Notes: generated by a model from the letters alone, not told the origin. A stretch of 64,000 nt of DNA from Bacteroidota bacterium (GCA_046335555.1 JBKDHA010000169.1:9048-73047), one strand, 5' to 3'; shown: positions 7,100 to 28,721, numbered from the stretch's first letter. Numbers and translations are program-made.

Positions 7100-7116
7100 A
7101 GATAATCGGAATGCAT

Positions 7117-7351
7117 GTGGCTTCGACAGGCTCAGCCACCTGCGAGATTTTTGTTTTTATCCACCTGCGAGATTTTTGTTTTTATCCACCTGCGAGATTT
7201 TTGTTTTTATCCACCTGCGAGATTTTTGTTTTTATCCACCCTGGAGATTTTAGTTTTTATTCACCCTGGAGATTTTTTTTATCCACCCTGGAGATGTTTA
7301 TTTATCTAGCTTCCAGAACGCATATCGGTGGCTGAGCCTGTCGAAGCCACC
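7117..7351. repeat. Inverted-repeat-bounded tandem array: 24-bp perfect TIRs (7117-7140 and 7327-7350) around about 7 copies of a 25-bp unit (ccacctgcgagatttttgtttttat; 4 perfect copies plus 3 degenerate, 7136-7305)
   Basis: Read directly from the sequence. The left TIR gtggcttcgacaggctcagccacc equals the reverse complement of 7327-7350. The periodic ORFs here (7090..7335 and 7115..7309) are repeat artefacts. Confidence 0.9.
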
Positions 7352-10191: not shown

Positions 10192-11586
10192 TTACTTCGG
10201 GTTGTTTACATAATTTTTGTAAAACAGCGGAATGGTTTCAATGCCTTTCAGGTAATTGAAAACACCATAATGCTCGTTGGGCGAGTGCAGCGCATCCGAA
10301 TCAAGGCCAAATCCAAACAAAATTGAATCGAGTCCGAGCACGCTTTTGAAAAGTGCCACAATCGGAATACTGCCGCCGCCGCGGGTTGGAATTGGTTTCT
10401 TGCCGTAAGCTTCTTCCATAGCAGCACTTGCAGCACGGTAAGCAGCCGAATTAGTAGAAACCACAACCGGTTCTCCGCCGTGATGATGCGAAACTTTTAC
10501 TTTAACGCCGGCCGGAGCAATTGCTTTGAAATGCTCGGCAAACTTGTTTGAAATCTCTTCCGAAGTCTGGTTCGGCACAAGACGCATCGAAATTTTCGCA
10601 TAAGCTTTCGACGGAAGAACAGTTTTTGCTCCTTCGCCGGTGTAGCCACCCCAGATGCCGTTTACATCGAGCGTCGGACGTGTGCCGGTGCGCTCAATGG
10701 TGGTGTAGCCTTTTTCGCCTTGAATATCGGCAATGTCGAGATCGCGTTTGTACTCTTCGAGATCAAACGGTGCACGGTTCAGTTCGGCACGGTCTTCGGC
10801 TGAAAGATCGGTTACATTATCGTAAAAACCGGGAATGGTGATGTGGTTATTTTCATCGTGCAGCGAAGCAATCATTTTGCAAAGCACATTCACCGGATTG
10901 GCAACAGCACCGCCGTAAACACCTGAGTGCAGGTCGCGGTTGGGGCCGGTTACTTCCACTTCCATGTATGCAAGACCACGCAGGCCAACATCAATAGAAG
11001 GTGTATCGTTGGCAATGATGGAGGTGTCTGAAATCAGAATCACATCGGCTTTGAGTTTCTCTTTGTGTGCACGCAGAAAATCGCCGAGGTTGGCCGATCC
11101 AACTTCTTCTTCACCTTCAATCATAAACTTCACGTTGCAGGGCAGGGTGTTGGTTTTCAGCATCACCTCAAGCGCCTTAACGTGCATGTACATCTGTCCT
11201 TTATCATCGCACGAGCCGCGGGCGAAAATAGCACCGTCAGGATGCTTATCGGTTTTGCGGATAACCGGCTCAAACGGCGGCGTAGTCCACAATTCCAGCG
11301 GATCCGGGGGCTGCACATCGTAGTGACCGTAAACGAGCACGGTAGGCAGGTGATCGCCCATGCGCTTTTCACCATATACAATCGGATGGCCGGGAGTAGG
11401 AATGATTTCGGCACTGTCGGCACCGGCAGCGAGCAGACTGGCTTTAACAGCATCAGCAGTGCGCTGCACATCGGGCGCATATTTCGGATCAGCACTCACA
11501 GAAGGAATGCGGAGAAGCTCAAACAGTTCGTTCAGGAAACGATCTTTGTTTTGCTGGATATAATCGCTTTGCGTTGACATAGGCAC
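10192..11586 (-). CDS. M20/M25/M40 family metallopeptidase (dipeptidase-like)
   Basis: HYDVQP metal-binding motif, GSCDDKG, and catalytic E (IEGEEE). 464 aa, as in PepV/Sapep-type dipeptidases. Confidence 0.85.
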   Translation of the reverse strand: MPMSTQSDYIQQNKDRFLNELFELLRIPSVSADPKYAPDVQRTADAVKASLLAAGADSAEIIPTPGHPIVYGEKRMGDHLPTVLVYGHYDVQPPDPLELWTTPPFEPVIRKTDKHPDGAIFARGSCDDKGQMYMHVKALEVMLKTNTLPCNVKFMIEGEEEVGSANLGDFLRAHKEKLKADVILISDTSIIANDTPSIDVGLRGLAYMEVEVTGPNRDLHSGVYGGAVANPVNVLCKMIASLHDENNHITIPGFYDNVTDLSAEDRAELNRAPFDLEEYKRDLDIADIQGEKGYTTIERTGTRPTLDVNGIWGGYTGEGAKTVLPSKAYAKISMRLVPNQTSEEISNKFAEHFKAIAPAGVKVKVSHHHGGEPVVVSTNSAAYRAASAAMEEAYGKKPIPTRGGGSIPIVALFKSVLGLDSILFGFGLDSDALHSPNEHYGVFNYLKGIETIPLFYKNYVNNPK

Positions 11587-18320: not shown

Positions 18321-18699
18321 ACTGCGATGTTACACAAAACCGCAGGAGGAACAGTTGAAAGCAGGAAATGTTTTTTGATGCCCCAAGCACAATGCTTTTG
18401 CGTGAGGGATGGAGGCGGCAGCTTTTGGGCGGGCTTCGTCGCGCTGCTTTCCCCACGCCCCGGCGGCGCGCCGAAGCCCGCAGAAAACTATAGCCGACAG
18501 CCCGCCCCTGCTGCAAATTCGATGTCCGGCGAAGCCGTTTGCAAATGCAGCAGGGGCACGCCCCAAAGAGAGCTATTGATTTGTCTGCTCTTTTTTCAAT
18601 GTTATTAATAGCAATGTACTTCAGCTATGAGATGTGTGAAAGGAAACTCGGTATTCGCTCTCCACTTTCCATTCAACACTCAACATTAATAATTCAACA

Positions 18700-19128
18700 T
18701 TACTTCTTCGTCTGTTCCTGCGTTTGCTTTGCACTCAACTCCTCAATCACTTTTTCATAAATCTTGTCTAAAACCTCTGGCTGAGCAGCATACCATTGCA
18801 TACTGCTTTCGTATTGTTGCAGCGTAACGCCGTGCTTTTTGAAAATATCGTAATACGGCATTGGCTTGGTGCCAATATTTTCGGGAACGGTTGGCATGGG
18901 CTGTCCGGTTTGCGGATTCATGCCCGGGCGTTTGGGACGCGCCTGACTGTAAAGCGGGCTGCGCATGCCCAGCGCGGCTTCCATGAGATGCACATCGGCC
19001 AAAACCTGCACCATTTTTTCTTCGGCAATAAGGTTTTCGGGCTCGGGCGGAAGTTTCGGGCCTTCGGGTTCTGAACAGCCGAAGGCCAGCAGCAGCGCAA
19101 GAAATAAACAGACTGTGCGTAAACTCAT
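18700..19128 (-). CDS. Hypothetical lipoprotein
   Basis: Signal peptide plus lipobox (LLLAFGCSE). 142 aa. Confidence 0.5.
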   Translation of the reverse strand: MSLRTVCLFLALLLAFGCSEPEGPKLPPEPENLIAEEKMVQVLADVHLMEAALGMRSPLYSQARPKRPGMNPQTGQPMPTVPENIGTKPMPYYDIFKKHGVTLQQYESSMQWYAAQPEVLDKIYEKVIEELSAKQTQEQTKK

Positions 19129-19319
19129 GTTACAAAGGTAAGAAGCTGTCAGGGAATTTTCTTACTTAATGATTTCATGTCTTTTTAGCCCGCTTTTCGT
19201 TACTTTTCTCAACAAGACCTTTCAGGTATTCTTTCAAAAAGTGCCTCAATCGGTCTAAAAATACATTGAAATCAAAGCGCAACAAAATTCCCTGACAGCC
19301 TCTGAGGAAATCAATATCT

Positions 19320-20768
19320 TTGAAAACACCAACCAACCACACCTGCATGAAACGTGTTCTGCTTTTTGGACTTTGTTTGCTCAGCGGCAACTTACTCAAT
19401 GCACAAATAGATCTTGGCGTACCCTCGGCAACCGGAAAGGGCGGGGTTTCTACTGCTCTGCTGCAAAACTGGGAAGTCATTGGTATAAATCCTGCCAATC
19501 TGGGCTGGGGAACCAACTACAAATTCTCGGTTGGTGTGATGAACTTCGGTTTTACCGCACAGTCGCGGGCGCTCGATTTTCCTTCGCTGCGCAAAGCATT
19601 TACAAAGCCTTCGGCGCAGTTTACACCGCAGCAGAAACAGGAATTTGCCAATCTGTTTTCGACATCCGACGGACTCAATATGCAAATGCATGTGAACTGG
19701 ATTGCGGCTTCAATTGCATTTCCAAAGTTCGGCGGACTTGCTGTTAACCTTCGCGACCGCGCTTTTGCGCATGTTGGTCTGAGCAAGAACGGCGCAGATA
19801 TTTTATTCAACGGCGTAAACTCAGCACCTTATCAGGACAGCAGCATTCTCAGTCAAAACATATCATCGGTGCTCGACGGAACCAATGCCAGCCTTTTGCA
19901 TTACCGCGAACTCAATCTGGCTTACGGCCGACGCATCCTGAAAATGGGCACCGAAGATGCCGACGGTGTGCCCGCTGTACAATTGTTTGCCGGTGCCGGA
20001 GTAAAATATATTTGGGGACTCGGCAATATGGATGTAAATGTGAAAGACGGAAAGCTTGATGGTCATGCCTCGTTTGTGGAGAGCTACAATGTGAATTACG
20101 GCAATCTTCAAAACTTCACACCGCAATCGACACCGCTGCTGTTTGATGCAGTTGGTTCCGGCATTGGTGTTGATGCAGGCGCATCGCTGATTCTGAACAA
20201 CCGTTTCCGCTTCGGTGTTTCGGTTACCGACATCGGTTCGATAACCTGGGGCAATAATGTTTTGCTCACAAGCGATACACTGATGCCCGCACTTGATTCA
20301 ACAAGCACCGGGTTGAACTCGTGGCAACTCGGCAGCCAGAGCGGAAATTTGTTCGGACAAAACGGAATTCTCAATGTTGCTCCGGGCCCCGATTATACAA
20401 CAGCTTTGCCTGCGCGCTTGCGTTTTGGTTACAGCATGCGCATTGGTAAACGCATTGATCTTGGCGCCGATTTGGTTGTGCCGCTAAATAAAGAGCTGTA
20501 TAATCTCGGACAGCCTTATCTGGCTGTTGGCGGCGAAATTAATTTGTTCGGAACTGCAAAACTTAGCCTTGGCTTTTCGGGCAACAACGAACTGGGCTGG
20601 TCGGTGCCGGTTGGTTTCACCATTGGCACATTCGGAATTTTTGAAGTGTATGTAGCCACCGGCGATGTGCTTTCGTACTTCACCAAAACCGATAATCCGC
20701 ACCTTTCGGTTGCAGTTGGCGTGCTGCGTTTCAATCTCAAGAATCCATTAGATAACAACAATAAGTAA
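19320..20768 (+). CDS. Hypothetical outer-membrane beta-barrel protein
   Basis: Signal peptide. Alternating amphipathic beta strands, G/S/N-rich. C-terminal F (GVLRFNLKNP...). Confidence 0.55.
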   Translation: MKTPTNHTCMKRVLLFGLCLLSGNLLNAQIDLGVPSATGKGGVSTALLQNWEVIGINPANLGWGTNYKFSVGVMNFGFTAQSRALDFPSLRKAFTKPSAQFTPQQKQEFANLFSTSDGLNMQMHVNWIAASIAFPKFGGLAVNLRDRAFAHVGLSKNGADILFNGVNSAPYQDSSILSQNISSVLDGTNASLLHYRELNLAYGRRILKMGTEDADGVPAVQLFAGAGVKYIWGLGNMDVNVKDGKLDGHASFVESYNVNYGNLQNFTPQSTPLLFDAVGSGIGVDAGASLILNNRFRFGVSVTDIGSITWGNNVLLTSDTLMPALDSTSTGLNSWQLGSQSGNLFGQNGILNVAPGPDYTTALPARLRFGYSMRIGKRIDLGADLVVPLNKELYNLGQPYLAVGGEINLFGTAKLSLGFSGNNELGWSVPVGFTIGTFGIFEVYVATGDVLSYFTKTDNPHLSVAVGVLRFNLKNPLDNNNK

Positions 20769-20792
20769 AAAGCCTCTGCTTACTTTCGCGGC

Positions 20793-21587
20793 ATGAATTA
20801 CAACGGCAAAGTAGTTTGGATTACCGGCGCATCATCTGGCATTGGTGAGGCGCTTGCAGTTGAGTTTGCCCGCGAAGGCGCGAAGCTTGTACTCTCGTCG
20901 CGCCGGCGCGATGAACTGGAGCGTGTGCAGAAAGCCTGCGGACTTGATGCTTCGCGCTGTTTAATTCTTCCGCTCGATCTTGCCGATACAACTGCCGTTG
21001 ATGCGTTAACGCAACAGGTTGTTGCAACTTTCGGCAGTATTGATGTGCTGGTGAACAATGGCGGAATCAGTCAGCGTGCACTTGCCAAAGATGCTCCGCT
21101 CGACATTGACCGTCGCATTATGGAAGTGAATTTTTTCGGACAGATAGCACTTACAAAAAATGTACTTCCGGTAATGCTGAAACAGCAAAGCGGACACATT
21201 GTAGTGATGAGCAGCATTGCCGGTAAATTCGGATTCTGGTACCGCACAGCTTATTCTGCTTCAAAACACGCACTGCACGGCTTCTTCGAATCGCTGCGGA
21301 TGGAAGTAGAAGGCGAAGGTTTGCAAGTGCTTATTGCTTGTCCGGGAAAAATCAGAACAGCCATTTCAATGCATGCACTGAAACCCGACGGCACCGCGCA
21401 CAATGTAATGGACAAGAGCCAGGAAGACGGAATGCCCGCCGATGAATGCGCCCGGCAGATTATTGCTGCTATGAAAAAAGGGAAGGAAGAAATCCTGATT
21501 GGCGGCCGCGAAATTAAAGCGGTTTGGATAAAGCGTCACTTCCCGGGCTTGTTTGGAAAGATTATCCGCAAGCAGGAAAAGGAATAA
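20793..21587 (+). CDS. SDR family oxidoreductase (short-chain dehydrogenase)
   Basis: TGASSGIG Rossmann motif, NNGG, catalytic YSASK. Confidence 0.9.
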   Translation: MNYNGKVVWITGASSGIGEALAVEFAREGAKLVLSSRRRDELERVQKACGLDASRCLILPLDLADTTAVDALTQQVVATFGSIDVLVNNGGISQRALAKDAPLDIDRRIMEVNFFGQIALTKNVLPVMLKQQSGHIVVMSSIAGKFGFWYRTAYSASKHALHGFFESLRMEVEGEGLQVLIACPGKIRTAISMHALKPDGTAHNVMDKSQEDGMPADECARQIIAAMKKGKEEILIGGREIKAVWIKRHFPGLFGKIIRKQEKE

Positions 21588-21594
21588 ATGAATT

Positions 21595-21619
21595 GGTGGT
21601 TTCGACAGGCTCAACCACC
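21595..21619. repeat. Hairpin repeat copy (ggtggtttcgacaggctcaaccacc) immediately after the SDR stop codon; left TIR of a 1.4-kb AT-rich block
   Basis: Same core (TTCGACAGGCTCA) as 7117-7140. 24 of 25 match to the reverse complement of 23036-23060. Confidence 0.85.
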
Positions 21620-21897
21620 ACAGCTTTTAGTCAAAAGCTCAACTGTCAACAGCTGTATTAATTGTTGTGGAAAGCATTTCTGGAAAATTTAGTTCAATTA
21701 AAATTTTTGATCGTCAAACTTTATATAGAATCTGATTTTACAACACCAAAAACGGCAACAGAATTTTTCACAACTTCTTTGACGATGCGTCCAAGAAGTA
21801 AATGTGGGAGATCGTCAAATCGAGATGATAAACTGTTTTGCCAATGCGAAGTATCGATTTTCCCTATCATAACTTATATTTATTGAGGTTAGTTGAA

Positions 21898-22233
21898 TTA
21901 TATCATAAATATGATTCGCAGGATAACAAACCAGTACACGAGTGCCATAGCTGCCAATACCCCCTGAACGGAGAGAATGATTTTATCCTTTGTGCTGAAT
22001 TTGATTTTATGGCGTTGATTCAACATGAGAAAAAATAGAATAATCGCCAGCGGGGAGGAAACGAACCGCATGAATGTAAGCCATTTCATTTCCCATAAAT
22101 AAATTAAGATAACGTTATCGACATAAAAAAAATAGTTTATTCCAGGAAGGAAATACAGAAAGAAATAGATTACAACTGGGGCAATAATGCCCCAAATACT
22201 TACTCGGAAGTAAACATCAATCTTTCGTTTCAT
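21898..22233 (-). CDS. Hypothetical small membrane protein
   Basis: 111 aa, three predicted TM helices, very AT-rich codon usage. Confidence 0.4.
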   Translation of the reverse strand: MKRKIDVYFRVSIWGIIAPVVIYFFLYFLPGINYFFYVDNVILIYLWEMKWLTFMRFVSSPLAIILFFLMLNQRHKIKFSTKDKIILSVQGVLAAMALVYWFVILRIIFMI

Positions 22234-22244
22234 TTCATCTATTA

Positions 22245-22847
22245 TTATTCATCGAAAAGCCCAAAGTATTCGTCATTTCTATTACCTATCGATGTGAATC
22301 TCATCCACTGATCAGAGATTCTTCTATATTGCTCAACGGGATAATACCTCGGAGACATCAAGCTATTGGCAAGTTCTATCATTTGTTGGTCGGTGTATTT
22401 TTGAGATGAAAAAATATATCCATCTGTTTGTTCCGCTCTACCATTTTTTTCATAAGGGAAAATAATCATGACTTTTTTATTTTCTGACAGCAGAATCAAT
22501 CTTGAATTTGTATAGTTGATGTATTTATTTAATCTAGTGTATGCTACATCTGATAGTATATCTTCCGTATTGTAATCCAAGCCATGGTCATATCCTAAGC
22601 CACTACACCATATTGTTTGGGTATCATTAAGAGAAGGGAATGACATATATGCAATCCCTCCCGGAACATCTTTCAATGAATCTAAAGGTGATGTATTAAT
22701 TACTTGCTCATTATCGTGAATACAAGAGGAAAAACAAAAAAGCAATAATACAGCAGTAAAAAAACTGTAATACAAGTTTATATATGGCTTAATTTTGAAA
22801 GCAAAAACTCGCATAAATATAATGTTTAATACTAAGGATAATCGCAT
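22245..22847 (-). CDS. Hypothetical lipoprotein
   Basis: Signal peptide/lipobox (LLLFCFSSC). 200 aa. AT-rich. Confidence 0.45.
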   Translation of the reverse strand: MRLSLVLNIIFMRVFAFKIKPYINLYYSFFTAVLLLFCFSSCIHDNEQVINTSPLDSLKDVPGGIAYMSFPSLNDTQTIWCSGLGYDHGLDYNTEDILSDVAYTRLNKYINYTNSRLILLSENKKVMIIFPYEKNGRAEQTDGYIFSSQKYTDQQMIELANSLMSPRYYPVEQYRRISDQWMRFTSIGNRNDEYFGLFDE

Positions 22848-23035
22848 TGAATAACTTTAGAATCCTACAAAAGAATGATTCAGTATTAGCACTGAACTAT
22901 TTTCGTTATAGGAAACGGCGTTATTCATATTTGCTAATATAGTGTACCGTAACTTTGAATTCAAGTTTCGTAACCAATTTTACATTATTTACAGTTAAAA
23001 GCTTATCGGTTTAGGTAATTGAGCTTGTCGATTTA

Positions 23036-23060
23036 GGTGGTTGAGCCTGTCGAAATCACC
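23036..23060. repeat. Hairpin repeat copy (ggtggttgagcctgtcgaaatcacc) inside an extended 9-bp stem (atttaggtg/cacctaaat) overlapping the GNAT stop; right TIR
   Basis: Read directly from the sequence. A partial tandem duplication (gagcttgtcgatttaggt) lies just upstream. Confidence 0.85.
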
Positions 23061-23623
23061 TAAATTGATTTCATAAAGCGAATTAAATATCCCTCGCGCA
23101 CAAGCCACGTATCAAAAACTGCAAAGCCGCGTTTCTCGTAAAACGGAATGTTTTTATCGACAGAAGTTTCGAGGTAAACCTCTTTCCCTTCTTTTGCCGC
23201 AGTTTGCAATAACGTATCAAGCAATTGACTGCCCGAACCTTTGCCGTGGTGCTGCGGATCTGTTCCGATAAGCATTAAGTAATAATGTGGATACGCAGGG
23301 CGGCGCGATGAAATTGCTTTATCTTTTTTAAGCATATAAAACAGGCGATTCCAGCCGATCACCTTGTACACGAGTTTGAGTTGAGCAAGTGTTTCGGTGA
23401 GGAACGATGTTTTCTGTGTAGGGTCGAAAAATACCGCTACCGAATGCCCGTCGTTACTGAAGTGTAATCCGTTGTTTCGGATTCCTAATTCAATAGAGTA
23501 ATTCATTAATGCTGTAATACGCGCTTCTCGTCTTTCGTCATGTTTGATGGTATCGTTTACACTCAGATTTTTATCGAATGCAGCGGCGAGAATTTGGACG
23601 GCGTTATTTGATCTCAATTCCAT
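23060..23623 (-). CDS. GNAT family N-acetyltransferase
   Basis: Acetyl-CoA-binding motif (HGKGSGSQLL), 187 aa. Confidence 0.8.
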   Translation of the reverse strand: MELRSNNAVQILAAAFDKNLSVNDTIKHDERREARITALMNYSIELGIRNNGLHFSNDGHSVAVFFDPTQKTSFLTETLAQLKLVYKVIGWNRLFYMLKKDKAISSRRPAYPHYYLMLIGTDPQHHGKGSGSQLLDTLLQTAAKEGKEVYLETSVDKNIPFYEKRGFAVFDTWLVREGYLIRFMKSI

Positions 23624-23624
23624 A

Positions 23625-24125
23625 TCAACTATAAACTAGTTCAGCATCAAAATACTTTATTAAGTCTTTTTTAGCTTTTCTTATTTCGTAATAAGTAGTA
23701 ATTGTAATAACTGCAATAAATATAACTGACACAATCCAAGGCATGATATTTAAGAGCAGATCATCCTTAGGTCTATTTGGTGTAAAGAAAAACATCATTA
23801 GAATAATCAAAATGAATGGCAATGCTATTTTAGTCAAAAGATTCGGAGCCATTTTTACTGTAATTGTTGACCGGCTTCCATTTTGAACAATATTGCCAGT
23901 GATTACAGGGAGAAAGCTGTTTCTGTAATTTATAATGCGCTTTATTTTAAAATCCTCCTCATCATACCATCCTTCATAGGTTTGATAGGGTGTTTTAGTG
24001 CCGGAGCTTGTGAAAAAATTATCTCTTTTATATACGTAATGATTAAGCCGGGCTAGAATTTCCTGCGGAGTAAGCGGCGTTGATAACGTAAACGTTTCTG
24101 AAAGCAGTACATTCATGTTTGTCAC
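23625..24125 (-). CDS. Hypothetical membrane protein
   Basis: 166 aa. Two C-terminal TM helices. Abuts the GNAT gene with a 1-bp gap. Confidence 0.45.
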   Translation of the reverse strand: MTNMNVLLSETFTLSTPLTPQEILARLNHYVYKRDNFFTSSGTKTPYQTYEGWYDEEDFKIKRIINYRNSFLPVITGNIVQNGSRSTITVKMAPNLLTKIALPFILIILMMFFFTPNRPKDDLLLNIMPWIVSVIFIAVITITTYYEIRKAKKDLIKYFDAELVYS

Positions 24126-24130
24126 AATTA

Positions 24131-25549
24131 TTATTTAACCAAAATTCTTGCTTCCAGCATATCACGAATGGCATAAGCAACGCCCTCGCGGCCAAGTCCC
24201 GAATCTTTTACACCGCCGTAAGGCATGTGATCGACGCGGAATGTGGGTACATCGTTGAGAATAATTCCACCGGCTTCGATATTGGCGAAAGCATAATCCA
24301 TTTCGCGTACATCGTTGGTAAACACACCGGCTTGTAATCCGAAACGGCTGTTGTTGATCTGACTAACCGCATCTTCAAACGTATCGTAAGGCTCAACAAT
24401 AACTACCGGGCCGAAAACTTCTTCGCACACTACTTTCATGCTAGTGTTTGTATTCGTAAGCACGGTGGGTGCGTAGTATGCGCCTTCGCGTGTGCCGCCG
24501 CAAAGTAACTCAGCTCCGGCTGCAACAGCTTCATTCACCCAGTTTTCAACACGCACAGCATTGGCTTCGTCGATCATGACTGAAACATCAACGCCGTCAA
24601 TCTCAGGATCGCCGCTGCGAAGGTTTTTGGCACGATCAGTAAACGCGGTTACGAAATCGCTGAACATGCTTTTTTGCACAAAAATGCGCTGTGCATGAAT
24701 GCAGATTTGTCCGGAATACGCAAATCCGCCGCCGATACATTTTGCAACAGCTTGTGTGAGATCGGCGGTGGGCGCAACAATAACGCCGGCATTTCCGCCA
24801 AGTTCGAGTACTGTTTTTTTCTTGCCGGCCTGCGCTTTCATGGCCCAGCCCACTTCGGGCGAGCCGGTGAAACTGAGCATTGCAAAACGCTCATCGGTAA
24901 CCAGCTGATTGCCCGCTGCGCGATTCATTGGCAAAATAGAAATCGCGCCTTTGGGCAGTTCGGTTTCGTCAATAATTTTGGCCAATTCAAGTGTAGAAAG
25001 CGGAGTAGAAGATGCCGGCTTCAAAATGATAGGACATCCTGCCGCAATGGCCGGAGCAATTTTATGAACCGCCAGGTTGAGCGGGAAGTTAAACGGTGCA
25101 ATGCCTGCAACAAGGCCAACCGGGAAGTATTTAACCCAGCCTTCGCGCTTCTCACCTGCGGGCGTGCGGTCGAGGCTGATGTACTCGCCGGGCAGGCGTT
25201 TGGCTTCTTCGGCGGCATCGAGAAAGGTTTGTGCCGCACGTAAAATTTCGGCACGCGCATAACGCATCGGCTTCCCTGATTCGCGGCAAAGCAACTGCGC
25301 CAGACGATCCTGCTTTTTGAGAATGGTATCTGAAATCTGGCGCAGGATACTAAACTTCTTCCAGCCCGGAAGCTGCCGCATTTCTTCGCGAACCGCCTGC
25401 GCCGCAACAATGGCTTGCTCCAGCTCTGCCGCACCTGCCAGCGATGTGGTGGCAATAACCTGCGAAGTGTAAGGGTTTACAACTTCAAGCAGCGAAGCCG
25501 TGTCGGCAAATTGCCCGCCAACATAAATGGAATAATGCGGTGCTGCCAT
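24131..25549 (-). CDS. NAD(P)-dependent aldehyde dehydrogenase
   Basis: ALDH glutamate site (LELGGNAG) and catalytic Cys region (GQICIHAQR). 472 aa. Confidence 0.9.
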   Translation of the reverse strand: MAAPHYSIYVGGQFADTASLLEVVNPYTSQVIATTSLAGAAELEQAIVAAQAVREEMRQLPGWKKFSILRQISDTILKKQDRLAQLLCRESGKPMRYARAEILRAAQTFLDAAEEAKRLPGEYISLDRTPAGEKREGWVKYFPVGLVAGIAPFNFPLNLAVHKIAPAIAAGCPIILKPASSTPLSTLELAKIIDETELPKGAISILPMNRAAGNQLVTDERFAMLSFTGSPEVGWAMKAQAGKKKTVLELGGNAGVIVAPTADLTQAVAKCIGGGFAYSGQICIHAQRIFVQKSMFSDFVTAFTDRAKNLRSGDPEIDGVDVSVMIDEANAVRVENWVNEAVAAGAELLCGGTREGAYYAPTVLTNTNTSMKVVCEEVFGPVVIVEPYDTFEDAVSQINNSRFGLQAGVFTNDVREMDYAFANIEAGGIILNDVPTFRVDHMPYGGVKDSGLGREGVAYAIRDMLEARILVK

Positions 25550-26802: not shown

Positions 26803-26829
26803 AGCTTGATAATTTGTTATTTTTGAGTA

Positions 26830-27549
26830 ATGAAAAATCAAGACAAATGGAAACCACGTCGTTTTCTGCGAGACAAGAAAGGGCGAATTATCGGAACCTA
26901 CAATCATAAAATTATCGGAAATGCGTATGAACCGGTAATCAGAAAGTATTCGAAAGGTAAGCTGGGCGATGTTGGGTGTGGTGATGTTCCATATTATCTC
27001 TTTTATAAAGATAGTGTTAGTGAAACCATTTGTATTGATTGGGGAAATAGCGGCCATAATATCTCTCATCTGGATTATGAAGCTGATTTGAATGAAGGCT
27101 TAGGTTTTATTGATACGAATACATTTGATACAGTGATTTGCTCGGATGTATTAGAACATATCCGAAAACCAGAATTTTTGTTTGCTGAGATGATCCGTGT
27201 ACTTAAACCGGGCGGACACCTGATTTTAACTGTTCCGTTTTTGTATTGGCTGCATGAGATTCCGCATGACCATCATCGCTACACTGAATTTAAATTGCGT
27301 GATTTTTGCTCGTCGAACAATGCGGAAGTAACCGAATTGTTTGCATACGGAGGATGGCCGGAAGTTGTTTTTGATATGATTTCAAAAGGTTACCGGTACA
27401 GTAACTTCCCGATGCAAAAAATGTTTTTCTTCTTCTGGAATGGCATGGGTAAATTTCTTTCACGCCGCAGCTTTGTTAAGCGTATTTCTGCCAATACCCG
27501 TAAAACATTTCCGCTGGGCTATGTTTTGGTTGCCCGAAAACTGAGTTAA
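26830..27549 (+). CDS. Class I SAM-dependent methyltransferase
   Basis: Motif I (VGCGDVPY) and motif post-I/II (VLKPGGHLILTVP). Confidence 0.75.
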   Translation: MKNQDKWKPRRFLRDKKGRIIGTYNHKIIGNAYEPVIRKYSKGKLGDVGCGDVPYYLFYKDSVSETICIDWGNSGHNISHLDYEADLNEGLGFIDTNTFDTVICSDVLEHIRKPEFLFAEMIRVLKPGGHLILTVPFLYWLHEIPHDHHRYTEFKLRDFCSSNNAEVTELFAYGGWPEVVFDMISKGYRYSNFPMQKMFFFFWNGMGKFLSRRSFVKRISANTRKTFPLGYVLVARKLS

Positions 27550-27659
27550 TTTTTATCGCGGGTAAAATAATCTATTAAAACACCGGAGAATTACAGCAGT
27601 AAATCATGATGATCGCCTGCAGTATATAAATGGACTGAAAATATCAGTTGAAGAAGCGA

Positions 27660-28721
27660 TTATTGTTTTGCGGTGTTTGCAACTGATAAAACAATAGCTC
27701 CAACAAGACAATAAATGGGTAGCAAGAGGCTGCGCATTGGTGCTAAATCGGAAAGTAAAAAGCAACTTACAAAAATATTGAGAGTGCCGATTGTAAGTAA
27801 GCTTACGATCAGCATTCGTTTTGCATTACCCTTCAGTACAATGCGATGATTTTTATTCATTCGGCCAATAGTGAAGATGACAGGCAGTAAAATAAGAACT
27901 TTAAAATGGGTTGCTTTCAGTAAATCCCAGTAGGTATGAATGGTGTTTTTTATGGCCTGAAGATATGTAAAATCAGGAAGTTGATTCAACCGTACTTTTA
28001 TTCCCGGCGATAAAACATTGATGAGAAGTGCTGTGCTTAAACCTAATAATGCCGCCGTAAGTATAAACGAGAAAGATTTTTCAATAAAGAATGAGCGCAA
28101 CCATATCACTGTAACAATTGCAAGCATTGTAATTAAGTTGGACTCCGAAAAACTTCCCGCAATCAGCAGAAGGAAGAAACCGAACAGACTATGCTTTAGT
28201 TGATGCGAGTACTGATGCTTCAACAACCAGGCTGCCGATAAAATCATCAGAATAAAAGAAAATGTATGCACGGATGTTCCTGCTGTCCAGTGCCACATAT
28301 CTGTGTTGACCGGCAGAATGCTTAAATAGCAGATGGCAATAAATAAAAATGAAAAAAGTAATTGTTCATGTTTCGCAAAACTCCTTTCTGCAATCCTTTG
28401 TGAAAGTGTGCGGAAGAAGAAGTTGAGCGAAAACAGCATGAAAAGTAAAAGGACGAATTGCCAGAGGATAAATATTCCTGACCATTTACTGCCAATGTAA
28501 AACAGCACACAACAGAGGATATGTGCACCCAGCCTGCCGTTTTGTTCGTTGTAGAAAAACTCGATTGCTCCTGATAAACCTTTGCTGATGGTTACTTCTG
28601 TGAAGAAAATATCATCGGCAGAAAAACGATAATGAATGGACTGTAAGGAGAACGCAATTAGAAAGAGAACAATGAATAATGCACTGAGCAGGTACGTCCA
28701 GCCATTGAAAATATTTTTCAC
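27660..28721 (-). CDS. Hypothetical polytopic membrane protein
   Basis: About 10 TM helices, no soluble domain. Confidence 0.5.
   Translation of the reverse strand: MKNIFNGWTYLLSALFIVLFLIAFSLQSIHYRFSADDIFFTEVTISKGLSGAIEFFYNEQNGRLGAHILCCVLFYIGSKWSGIFILWQFVLLLFMLFSLNFFFRTLSQRIAERSFAKHEQLLFSFLFIAICYLSILPVNTDMWHWTAGTSVHTFSFILMILSAAWLLKHQYSHQLKHSLFGFFLLLIAGSFSESNLITMLAIVTVIWLRSFFIEKSFSFILTAALLGLSTALLINVLSPGIKVRLNQLPDFTYLQAIKNTIHTYWDLLKATHFKVLILLPVIFTIGRMNKNHRIVLKGNAKRMLIVSLLTIGTLNIFVSCFLLSDLAPMRSLLLPIYCLVGAIVLSVANTAKQ

Follow-up and report, generated by a model that had tools for sequence, protein, structure and literature searches.

Two inverted copies of a 25-nt repeat stand between a dehydrogenase gene and an acetyltransferase gene in a Bacteroidota genome, and between the two copies lies an AT-rich block with two small genes. 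Are the repeats the ends of the block, so that the whole moves as a unit, or did the block enter a place where such repeats already stood? An earlier note on this DNA saw two possibilities: a non-autonomous mobile cassette bounded by terminal inverted repeats (TIRs), or DNA acquired horizontally that has a REP-like terminator hairpin on either side by chance.

Freshwater metagenome contigs and an NCBI 'Bacteroidota bacterium' MAG have sequence identical to the window (the whole stretch of DNA that was analysed, 64,000 nt in length). The order of genes at the locus is DUF5723, SDR (+), hairpin, p111 and p200 (-), hairpin, GNAT (-), p166 (-) and aldehyde dehydrogenase (-). Since SDR lies on the plus strand and GNAT follows on the minus strand, the two are convergent. 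The features that matter to the argument are these:

20793-21587, plus strand: SDR (short-chain dehydrogenase), the left core gene (Pfam adh_short, E 6.6e-53)
21588-23067, no strand: the strain-variable interval, consisting of 7 nt, the left hairpin, the AT-rich block, the right hairpin structure and 7 nt
21595-21619, plus strand: left hairpin, with an 8-bp stem (21594-21601 / 21613-21620) and the 11-nt loop TCGACAGGCTC
21620-21655, plus strand: echo zone, where the 3' arm recurs in degenerate form (GCTCAAC, 21637-21643) and where a small AT hairpin lies (21622-21639)
21898-22233, minus strand: p111 (111-aa ORF), second in the module and coding for a small protein with roughly three TM segments
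22245-22847, minus strand: p200 (200-aa ORF), first in the module and coding for a predicted lipoprotein
23007-23068, minus strand: right composite hairpin structure, made of a degenerate inner unit, the canonical unit at 23036-23060 and a long stem
23060-23623, minus strand: GNAT acetyltransferase (Pfam Acetyltransf_1), convergent with SDR
23625-24125, minus strand: p166 (166-aa ORF), next after GNAT, GC 0.31-0.35
7116-7351: second hairpin pair in the window, 7116-7140 (plus) and 7327-7351 (minus), between divergent genes

The pair of repeats is real. The left copy, GGTGGTTTCGACAGGCTCAACCACC at 21595-21619 (+), and the right copy, GGTGATTTCGACAGGCTCAACCACC at 23036-23060 (-), match in inverted orientation with one mismatch (24 of 25 positions), just as the earlier note had described them, and when the window was shuffled 100 times with its dinucleotides preserved, no match to the repeat appeared, even with up to 3 mismatches allowed. 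The 64 kb contain 4-5 copies of the family, and each copy is predicted to fold into a stem of 7-8 bp and a loop of 11 nt. The hairpin pair that the earlier note placed near 7117-7351 is indeed made of the same repeat; it brackets 27-nt tandem repeats, each beginning with the 3' arm CCACC.

A stop codon directly precedes each hairpin. The left hairpin begins 7 nt past the SDR stop, and on the right the distance is 0 nt, the GNAT stop codon (23060-23062) lying inside the stem of the composite hairpin. To the right of the left hairpin, the echo zone is a tandem zone that varies in copy number: a second strain, represented by assemblies L003 and L193, carries at 21622 an extra 31-nt unit (...CTCAACCACCACAG). 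The right composite contains an inner degenerate unit, whose loop is at 23021-23031, and 15-nt arms at 23028-23042 and 23054-23068. A third allele, seen in L066 and L067, has only one unit there, with a perfect 14-bp stem, and so the right hairpin of the window has a 22-nt internal duplication.

Several things that might have been found at these repeats were not. Inverted similarity does not extend past the hairpin unit (local alignment of the inner flanks scores 16, as against a mean of 17 for shuffled sequence). A target-site duplication (TSD), which the earlier note suggested looking for just outside the repeats, does not abut them: the flanks are ATGAATT (21588-21594) and TAAATTG (23061-23067). 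A scan for intrinsic terminators came up empty at both hairpins and no T-run follows either stem, the sequences 3' of the two being ACAGCTTTTAG and TAAATCGACA; on these grounds a Rho-independent terminator is rejected. Rfam 15 gave no match at E <= 1 in 20500-24500 and none at the gathering score across the whole window. Finally, there is no recombinase, integrase or transposase gene in the region 19.3-25.5 kb.

The enclosed segment is AT-rich, as had been claimed, with a GC fraction of 0.30-0.36 over 21600-23100, against 0.48-0.53 in the SDR gene and 0.39-0.44 in GNAT. The low-GC zone is not bounded by the right hairpin, however: GNAT is intermediate and p166 is low again. Elsewhere in the window a second strain-specific gene (methyltransferase-like, 26803-27660) likewise has convergent neighbours, and there are no hairpins around it.

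What does the block encode? Both minus-strand ORFs named in the earlier note are there, the 111-aa protein with its roughly three TM segments and the 200-aa lipoprotein. Other assemblies call the start of p200 at Met12, giving 189 aa, and p200 is probably this 189-aa protein, beginning with the Met at 22814. The cysteine of its lipobox is invariant across all five homologues. Its relatives are few. An exhaustive HMMER search of 1.84 billion representative proteins turned up only 6, and p200 and p111 are represented among 5.8 billion clusters just by the same organism and one 75% allele. Three of the p200 homologues are distant (L188, L190 and L191), with 24-26% identity in a MAFFT alignment and 26-29% by HMMER. 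Behind each of the three comes a p111-like gene, about 110 aa long, so p200 and p111 constitute a genuine conserved two-gene module. In L188, for example, the p200 homologue shares 29% identity with p200, and the 110-aa ORF behind it 40% with p111. The TTCGACAGGCTCA hairpin was not found beside the module in any of these three genomes (GC 37-38%). Neither protein has a match in Pfam, NCBIfam or PADLOC, and Foldseek found no fold in the PDB matching the AF2 model of p200 (pLDDT 74) at E <= 0.001.

Closer to home, the module varies. The L066/L067 allele is only 60-80% identical to the window in the centre of p200 (22337-22686) and 96-100% identical in the flanks of that centre, and p111 is disrupted in L003 and L193 by a 1-nt indel in a run of eight Ts. 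Every contig with p200 or p111 at 75% identity or more and with visible flanks (metagenome contigs only) has them in the SDR/GNAT context.

Orthologous loci, all of them in metagenome assemblies, were gathered by a scan with the SDR protein, one genome per species, and by look-ups of GNAT variants. In the close relatives L004 and L194/L195, whose flanks are 87-93% identical in nucleotide sequence to those of the window, there is neither block nor hairpins, and SDR and GNAT are about 20-40 nt apart. By blastn, homology between these genomes and the window ends at 21587 and restarts at 23068. The SDR stop is thus the left border of the variable interval, with the alignments of L004, L194 and L195 all stopping at 21587. 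What these genomes have in its stead is 41 nt unrelated to either flank of the window, encoding a longer C-terminus of GNAT (..FMKWSPHNQ* in L004, ..FMKSI* in the window); 191-aa variants of GNAT go along with the empty site. Neither a clean flank-to-flank junction nor a single hairpin scar was found in L004 or L194/L195.

In more distant relatives (L199, L005 and L196/L197, at about 78% nucleotide identity) there are hairpins at the same site with no genes between them. The SDR stop of L199 is followed by 8 nt, a hairpin (+), a 113-nt spacer, four tandem hairpins (-) with a 42-nt period and then GNAT, the whole interval amounting to 303 nt; the spacer has no similarity to the AT-rich block of the window. 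In L005 a hairpin (+) likewise begins 8 nt after the SDR stop; beyond it come three units of 37 nt in direct orientation, and a Flavo-1 RNA. L196/L197 have a single hairpin in the same place and with the same flanks as in L199, except that the loop is reverse-complemented. Among the relatives found, no genome has the block without hairpins at the SDR-GNAT locus. Three contigs end at a hairpin (L002, L066 and L067), and because contigs often break there, some junctions are invisible.

There is a strain that has the block and both hairpins and nonetheless differs from the window in an instructive way. It is known from two independent assemblies, L003 from JGI and L193 from ENA, which differ from each other at 9 positions in 3126 nt. 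Compared with the window, this strain diverges by 6.0-6.8% in DUF5723 and SDR (6.0% in SDR), up to 21588; by about 0.2% from 21589 to 23287; by 17.6% in a patch of GNAT, 23288-23623; and by about 0.1% in p166 and the 3' end of ALDH. The same pattern appears in both assemblies, which rules out an assembly chimera as its source. The mosaic divergence therefore means that the block was recently exchanged between diverged backgrounds, and one crossover is located at the left hairpin. The near-identical tract begins at that hairpin and overruns the right one by about 230 nt. Excision or insertion at the two repeats does not fit a tract that overruns one of them. The L066/L067 allele also has near-identical flanks.

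The hairpins at this locus belong to a large family. Its element has a variable but covarying stem of 7-9 bp; the loop of 11-13 nt (TTCGACAGGCTCA) is conserved, and the 3' arm (..CTCAACCACC) strongly so. At least 120 public metagenome contigs contain GTGRYTTCGACAGGCTCARCCAC, with GC from 0.32 to 0.72 among the matches listed, and one viral contig matches it as well. In the loci examined, the same loop is found within 27 distinct complementary stems. A C follows ..CCAC in 99% of the copies, and a G precedes GTGG.. in only 73%; the tags GTAG and CGTC occur in only 6 and 5 of the 158 copies, respectively. An echo of the 3' arm lies downstream in 20 of the 158. A copy may stand alone, be paired with another 40-50 nt away (in either orientation) or belong to a direct array, and there is no enrichment of head-to-head or inverted pairs more than 500 nt apart (4/21).

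There is no fixed rule of orientation. Within 40 nt of a stop codon 8 copies are sense and 18 antisense, by which count a sense-orientation rule relative to the upstream gene does not hold in general. On contigs with less than 55% GC, 80 of the 119 copies are outside long ORFs and the other 39, about a third, are inside. Of the copies within ORFs at least three are true in-frame insertions, as judged against solved homologues: 10 residues in aspS (aspartyl-tRNA synthetase), 8 in an ABC ATPase and 6 in a ketoacyl synthase (KAS). Five of the six reading frames through the hairpin are open. L095 and L155 are homologous exactly as far as a hairpin, whose loop is reversed in one relative to the other. 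When 1.8 Mb of loci with the hairpin were scanned by motif, one RAYT-like ORF came to light (in L170), which is not flanked by hairpins; these loci reveal no association with RAYT. In the literature searched, no relevant paper contains the sequence of the loop or of its complement, or the peptides typically encoded, and searches by concept led only to general work on REP, REPIN and RAYT.

I propose, with a probability of about 0.7, that the interval is a REP/BIME-like cluster of hairpins in a convergent spacer, in which a recently acquired and recombining accessory islet is embedded. The cluster would have resided for a long time between the convergent SDR and GNAT genes of this Bacteroidota lineage. 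Within it, in one shallow clade, was presumably placed an AT-rich, horizontally acquired module of a lipoprotein and a small membrane protein. That the module sits within the cluster would be why hairpins are found on both sides of it; they are not the TIRs of the module. The interval would then behave as a presence/absence polymorphism, spread among strains by homologous recombination and lost or replaced in sister lineages. The block appears to have entered a cluster that was already there, rather than the cluster having grown around the block, and the hairpins may favour breakage and recombination or may serve as portable homology. The direction of events, whether gain of the block or loss of it, would be given by parsimony and base composition only. 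Little should be read into the inverted orientation of the two copies, since a loop can flip where it stands.

Three observations count against this proposal. No genome with the block at this locus was seen to lack the hairpins. On both sides the edge of the indel, as defined by L004 and L194/L195, comes to within 7 nt of the outer end of the hairpin, and the near-identical tract has its left edge at the left hairpin. Edges that coincide with hairpins are just what would be predicted by a mechanism of insertion or excision specific to hairpins.

Such a mechanism can be imagined: a trans-acting enzyme, an HUH/Y1 protein or a tyrosine recombinase that works on folded single strands, would integrate or remove the block at the hairpins, by analogy with integron attC sites or with insertion sequences that target REPs. 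Both edges of the indel would be explained in this way, as would the breakpoint that both independent assemblies place at the left hairpin and the homology between L095 and L155 that ends at a hairpin with its loop reversed. Something, moreover, puts hairpins into aspS, the ABC ATPase and KAS as small in-frame insertions. The loop even contains GCTCAAC, which might be taken to fit the RYYYAAC consensus of integrons, a weak match to a degenerate motif. But where is the enzyme? The neighbourhood (19.3-25.5 kb) encodes no candidate, and the one RAYT-like ORF in 1.8 Mb has no hairpin flanking it. The near-identical tract does not stop at the right hairpin, the empty sites hold 41 unrelated nt rather than a single hairpin scar, and the islet at 26803-27660 manages without hairpins altogether. 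Capture directed by hairpins is on balance unlikely.

It is harder still to believe in the cassette, in which the hairpins would be the TIRs of a non-autonomous element that contains p111 and p200 and transposes as a unit. An inverted repeat with 24 matches in 25 at both ends, an AT-rich cargo and relatives that lack block and hairpins together (L004 and L194/L195) all suit a transposon. A TSD is absent, however, the repeat is nothing but the hairpin unit, the family shows no excess of head-to-head pairs at kilobase spacing, and the block is found at one locus only. The earlier note itself named two arrangements that would speak against a cassette, and both occur: repeats stand at this site with nothing between them in L199, L005 and L196/L197, and the two ORFs are found without flanking repeats in L188, L190 and L191, which are other genomes with the module elsewhere. 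I consider the cassette barely credible. Might the hairpins, then, have nothing to do with the gain, loss or exchange of the islet, each being a stabiliser of the 3' end or a terminator that belongs to SDR or to GNAT? They do lie just behind stop codons, at 7 nt and at 0 nt, each oriented in the sense of its own gene, and the position of the SDR-proximal hairpin is conserved in L005 and L199. A terminator should have a T-run, though, and the scan found no terminator at either; the same hairpin is flipped in L196; the family as a whole has 8 sense and 18 antisense copies near stops, and a third of its copies on low-GC contigs inside ORFs; and the other pair in the window lies between divergent genes. 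Coincidence also leaves the breakpoint at the left hairpin unexplained, and I judge it improbable. Of the note's two possibilities the second is supported, that REP-like hairpins flank acquired DNA; the hairpins are not canonical terminators.

If the locus is best read as an islet in a resident hairpin cluster, what of the hairpin itself? The family may multiply by means of a trans-acting enzyme that acts on single-stranded DNA, or by template switching at the hairpin. A bolder thought, which I put forward tentatively and which may well be wrong, is that (c)GGTGGTT-TCGACAGGCTC-AACCACC(g) is a palindromic element of about 25-33 nt, not yet described, that propagates itself and is nearly constant across bacteria of 32-72% GC. 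Such an element would insert itself into intergenic DNA and, in frame, into essential genes. It would seed tandem echoes of its 3' arm, flip its own loop in place and mark the breakpoints for gain, loss and exchange of accessory islets.

For the locus, the outcome is a clarification: a supposed transposon-like cassette becomes an accessory islet within a cluster of REP-like hairpins. The flagged locus is in itself an ordinary situation, repeats and an islet. An inverted pair of these hairpins should not be annotated as the termini of an element, the more so as the loop can flip. The wider interest is in the hairpin family, which is found on many unrelated contigs (at least 120), in housekeeping genes and at breakpoints of homology. 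Its constancy across lineages, if true, would imply either a conserved trans-acting partner or repeated horizontal spread. Should the hairpin turn out to be a mobile or recombinogenic element in its own right, served by a conserved partner protein, it would make a useful marker of genome plasticity. As a distinct element it would also be a source of breaks in metagenome assemblies, three contigs ending there.

How does the hairpin compare with systems already known? It is not an integron attC site, which was rejected for want of an integrase in 19.3-25.5 kb and of a second box, each hairpin having one RYYYAAC-like heptamer. It resembles the Rickettsia palindromic elements (RPE) in that in-frame insertion into coding genes is tolerated, here in aspS, the ABC ATPase and KAS. 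RPEs, however, are 100-150 nt in length and restricted to Rickettsia, whereas the present hairpin is about 25-33 nt and extends across very different genomes. With MITEs and other TIR-bounded transposons the locus shares inverted repeats at both ends of a segment missing from relatives. It differs from them in that its repeat is a self-contained hairpin also found alone, in that there is no TSD, and in that the cargo is at one locus only while hairpins remain at the site without it.

The flip-flop of loops between short inverted repeats is well known from non-coding DNA of plastids. The same relationship is evident between L199 and L196, which share flanks and stems and have loops that are reverse complements of each other, and likewise between L155 and L095. 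The difference is that here it is seen in bacterial repeats.

The nearest kin are REP, BIME and REPIN sequences, short imperfect palindromes in many copies that are hot spots of recombination and insertion (PMC3116915, PMC3733652, PMC6006769). The hairpin is like them in being an imperfect palindrome of 25-35 nt, present in many copies as singles, as head-to-head or tail-to-tail doublets and as intergenic clusters, and in persisting at orthologous sites with local turnover, as the clusters of L005 and L199 attest. Nonetheless the family differs from the tagged REP super-families and from REPIN/RAYT, and is set apart from their descriptions, by its large conserved loop, its presence in genomes of varied GC and its in-frame insertion. 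Unlike the REP super-families (PMC3733652), it generally does without a GTAG or CGTC tag (6 and 5 of 158), and what is conserved in it is not the stem but the large loop of 11-13 nt and the 3' arm. REPs are usually specific to a lineage, and REPIN/RAYT systems are restricted in the same way (PMC3116915, PMC6006769); the hairpin occurs in genomes of very different composition, with an identical 23-mer in contigs of 32-72% GC among the matches listed. A third of its copies on low-GC contigs, again unlike REPs, are inside ORFs.

The islet, for its part, is much like other small islets between convergent core genes, with AT-rich orphan genes, presence in some strains and absence from others, mosaic flanks and no genes for mobility. 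It is unlike them in two respects: it lies inside a cluster of hairpins, and one crossover falls at a hairpin.

The convergent SDR and GNAT genes enclose an AT-rich islet, bounded by two copies of the hairpin, a REP-like palindrome of about 25 nt:

20793-21587, +, SDR gene
21595-21619, +, left hairpin copy
21898-22233, -, p111, a small membrane protein
22245-22847, -, p200, a predicted lipoprotein
23036-23060, -, right hairpin copy
23060-23623, -, GNAT gene

The orthologous SDR-GNAT spacers of two related species (L199:2930-3200 and L196:5870-5915) have the same flanks and the same stems, while their loops are reverse complements of each other. The hairpin loop flips in place, which makes the orientation of the copies labile. 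The hairpin is widely distributed: its 23-nt core occurs, identical, in at least 120 metagenome contigs ranging in GC from 32 to 72% (loci L068-L187; for example L108, L122, L155 and L095), and it is found also within genes as in-frame insertions, of 10 residues in aspS, 8 in an ABC ATPase and 6 in a ketoacyl synthase. When L095 is set against L155, the hairpin is the point at which homology stops, and the loop is reversed between the two. About seven 27-nt tandem repeats, each starting with the hairpin's 3' arm, CCACC, lie inside the window's other hairpin pair (repeats at 7136-7310). The same echo architecture appears beside the left hairpin (21620-21655) and in other contigs.

There is also a GC-rich hairpin, at 18433-18480, which shares the stem CGCGCTGC..GGCGGCGCG with L002:1-45. 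Contig L002 is identical to the window throughout the stretch that was aligned (window 19001-21600). The loop reads TTTCCCCACGCCCC in the window and TTCGACAAGCTCA in L002, and it has apparently been replaced at this one site. Just downstream (18564-18669), contig L004 carries an insertion of 2.2 kb. L004 (CALRTD020000006.1) is titled a Synechococcus MAG, and it is 88-91% identical in nucleotides to the Bacteroidota window across most of its 17 kb, with 82% identity in GNAT; the contig was probably mis-binned.

The genes of the islet vary in different ways. In the comparison with the third allele (L066/L067), the centre of p200 (22337-22686), the mature portion of the lipoprotein, is only 60-80% identical in nucleotides, and the signal peptide, C-terminus and non-coding flanks are 96-100% identical. 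Such a hypervariable core is suggestive of diversifying selection or of shuffling between alleles. In p111, a T8 run (22123-22130, minus strand) differs in length by 1 nt in one other strain, producing a frameshift present in both of its independent assemblies (L003 and L193); the gene there may be a pseudogene or subject to slippage-based switching. In one MAG, GCA_030154765.1, the lipoprotein/membrane module is present twice, as paralogues (L190 and L191); directly after each lies a common repeated sequence of about 130 nt that opens an ORF (MESNKKSLRRSAEEIECIKESWK) and may be a mobile gene.

Strain differences extend beyond the islet. The N-terminal two thirds of GNAT (23288-23623) show 17.6% strain divergence, as against about 0.1-0.2% on either side, and represent a replaced allele within an otherwise near-identical tract. 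Farther on, between convergent genes, a methyltransferase-like gene of 239 aa (26803-27660) is replaced in L004 by 7 nt. This is a second strain-specific islet, and no hairpins flank it.

No Flavo-1 RNA was found in the window. The orthologous SDR-GNAT spacer of L005, a more distant relative, contains one (RF01705, 52.6 bits, E 1.7e-10; 11037-11176), and sequence similar to that region is present at L196:5650-5800.
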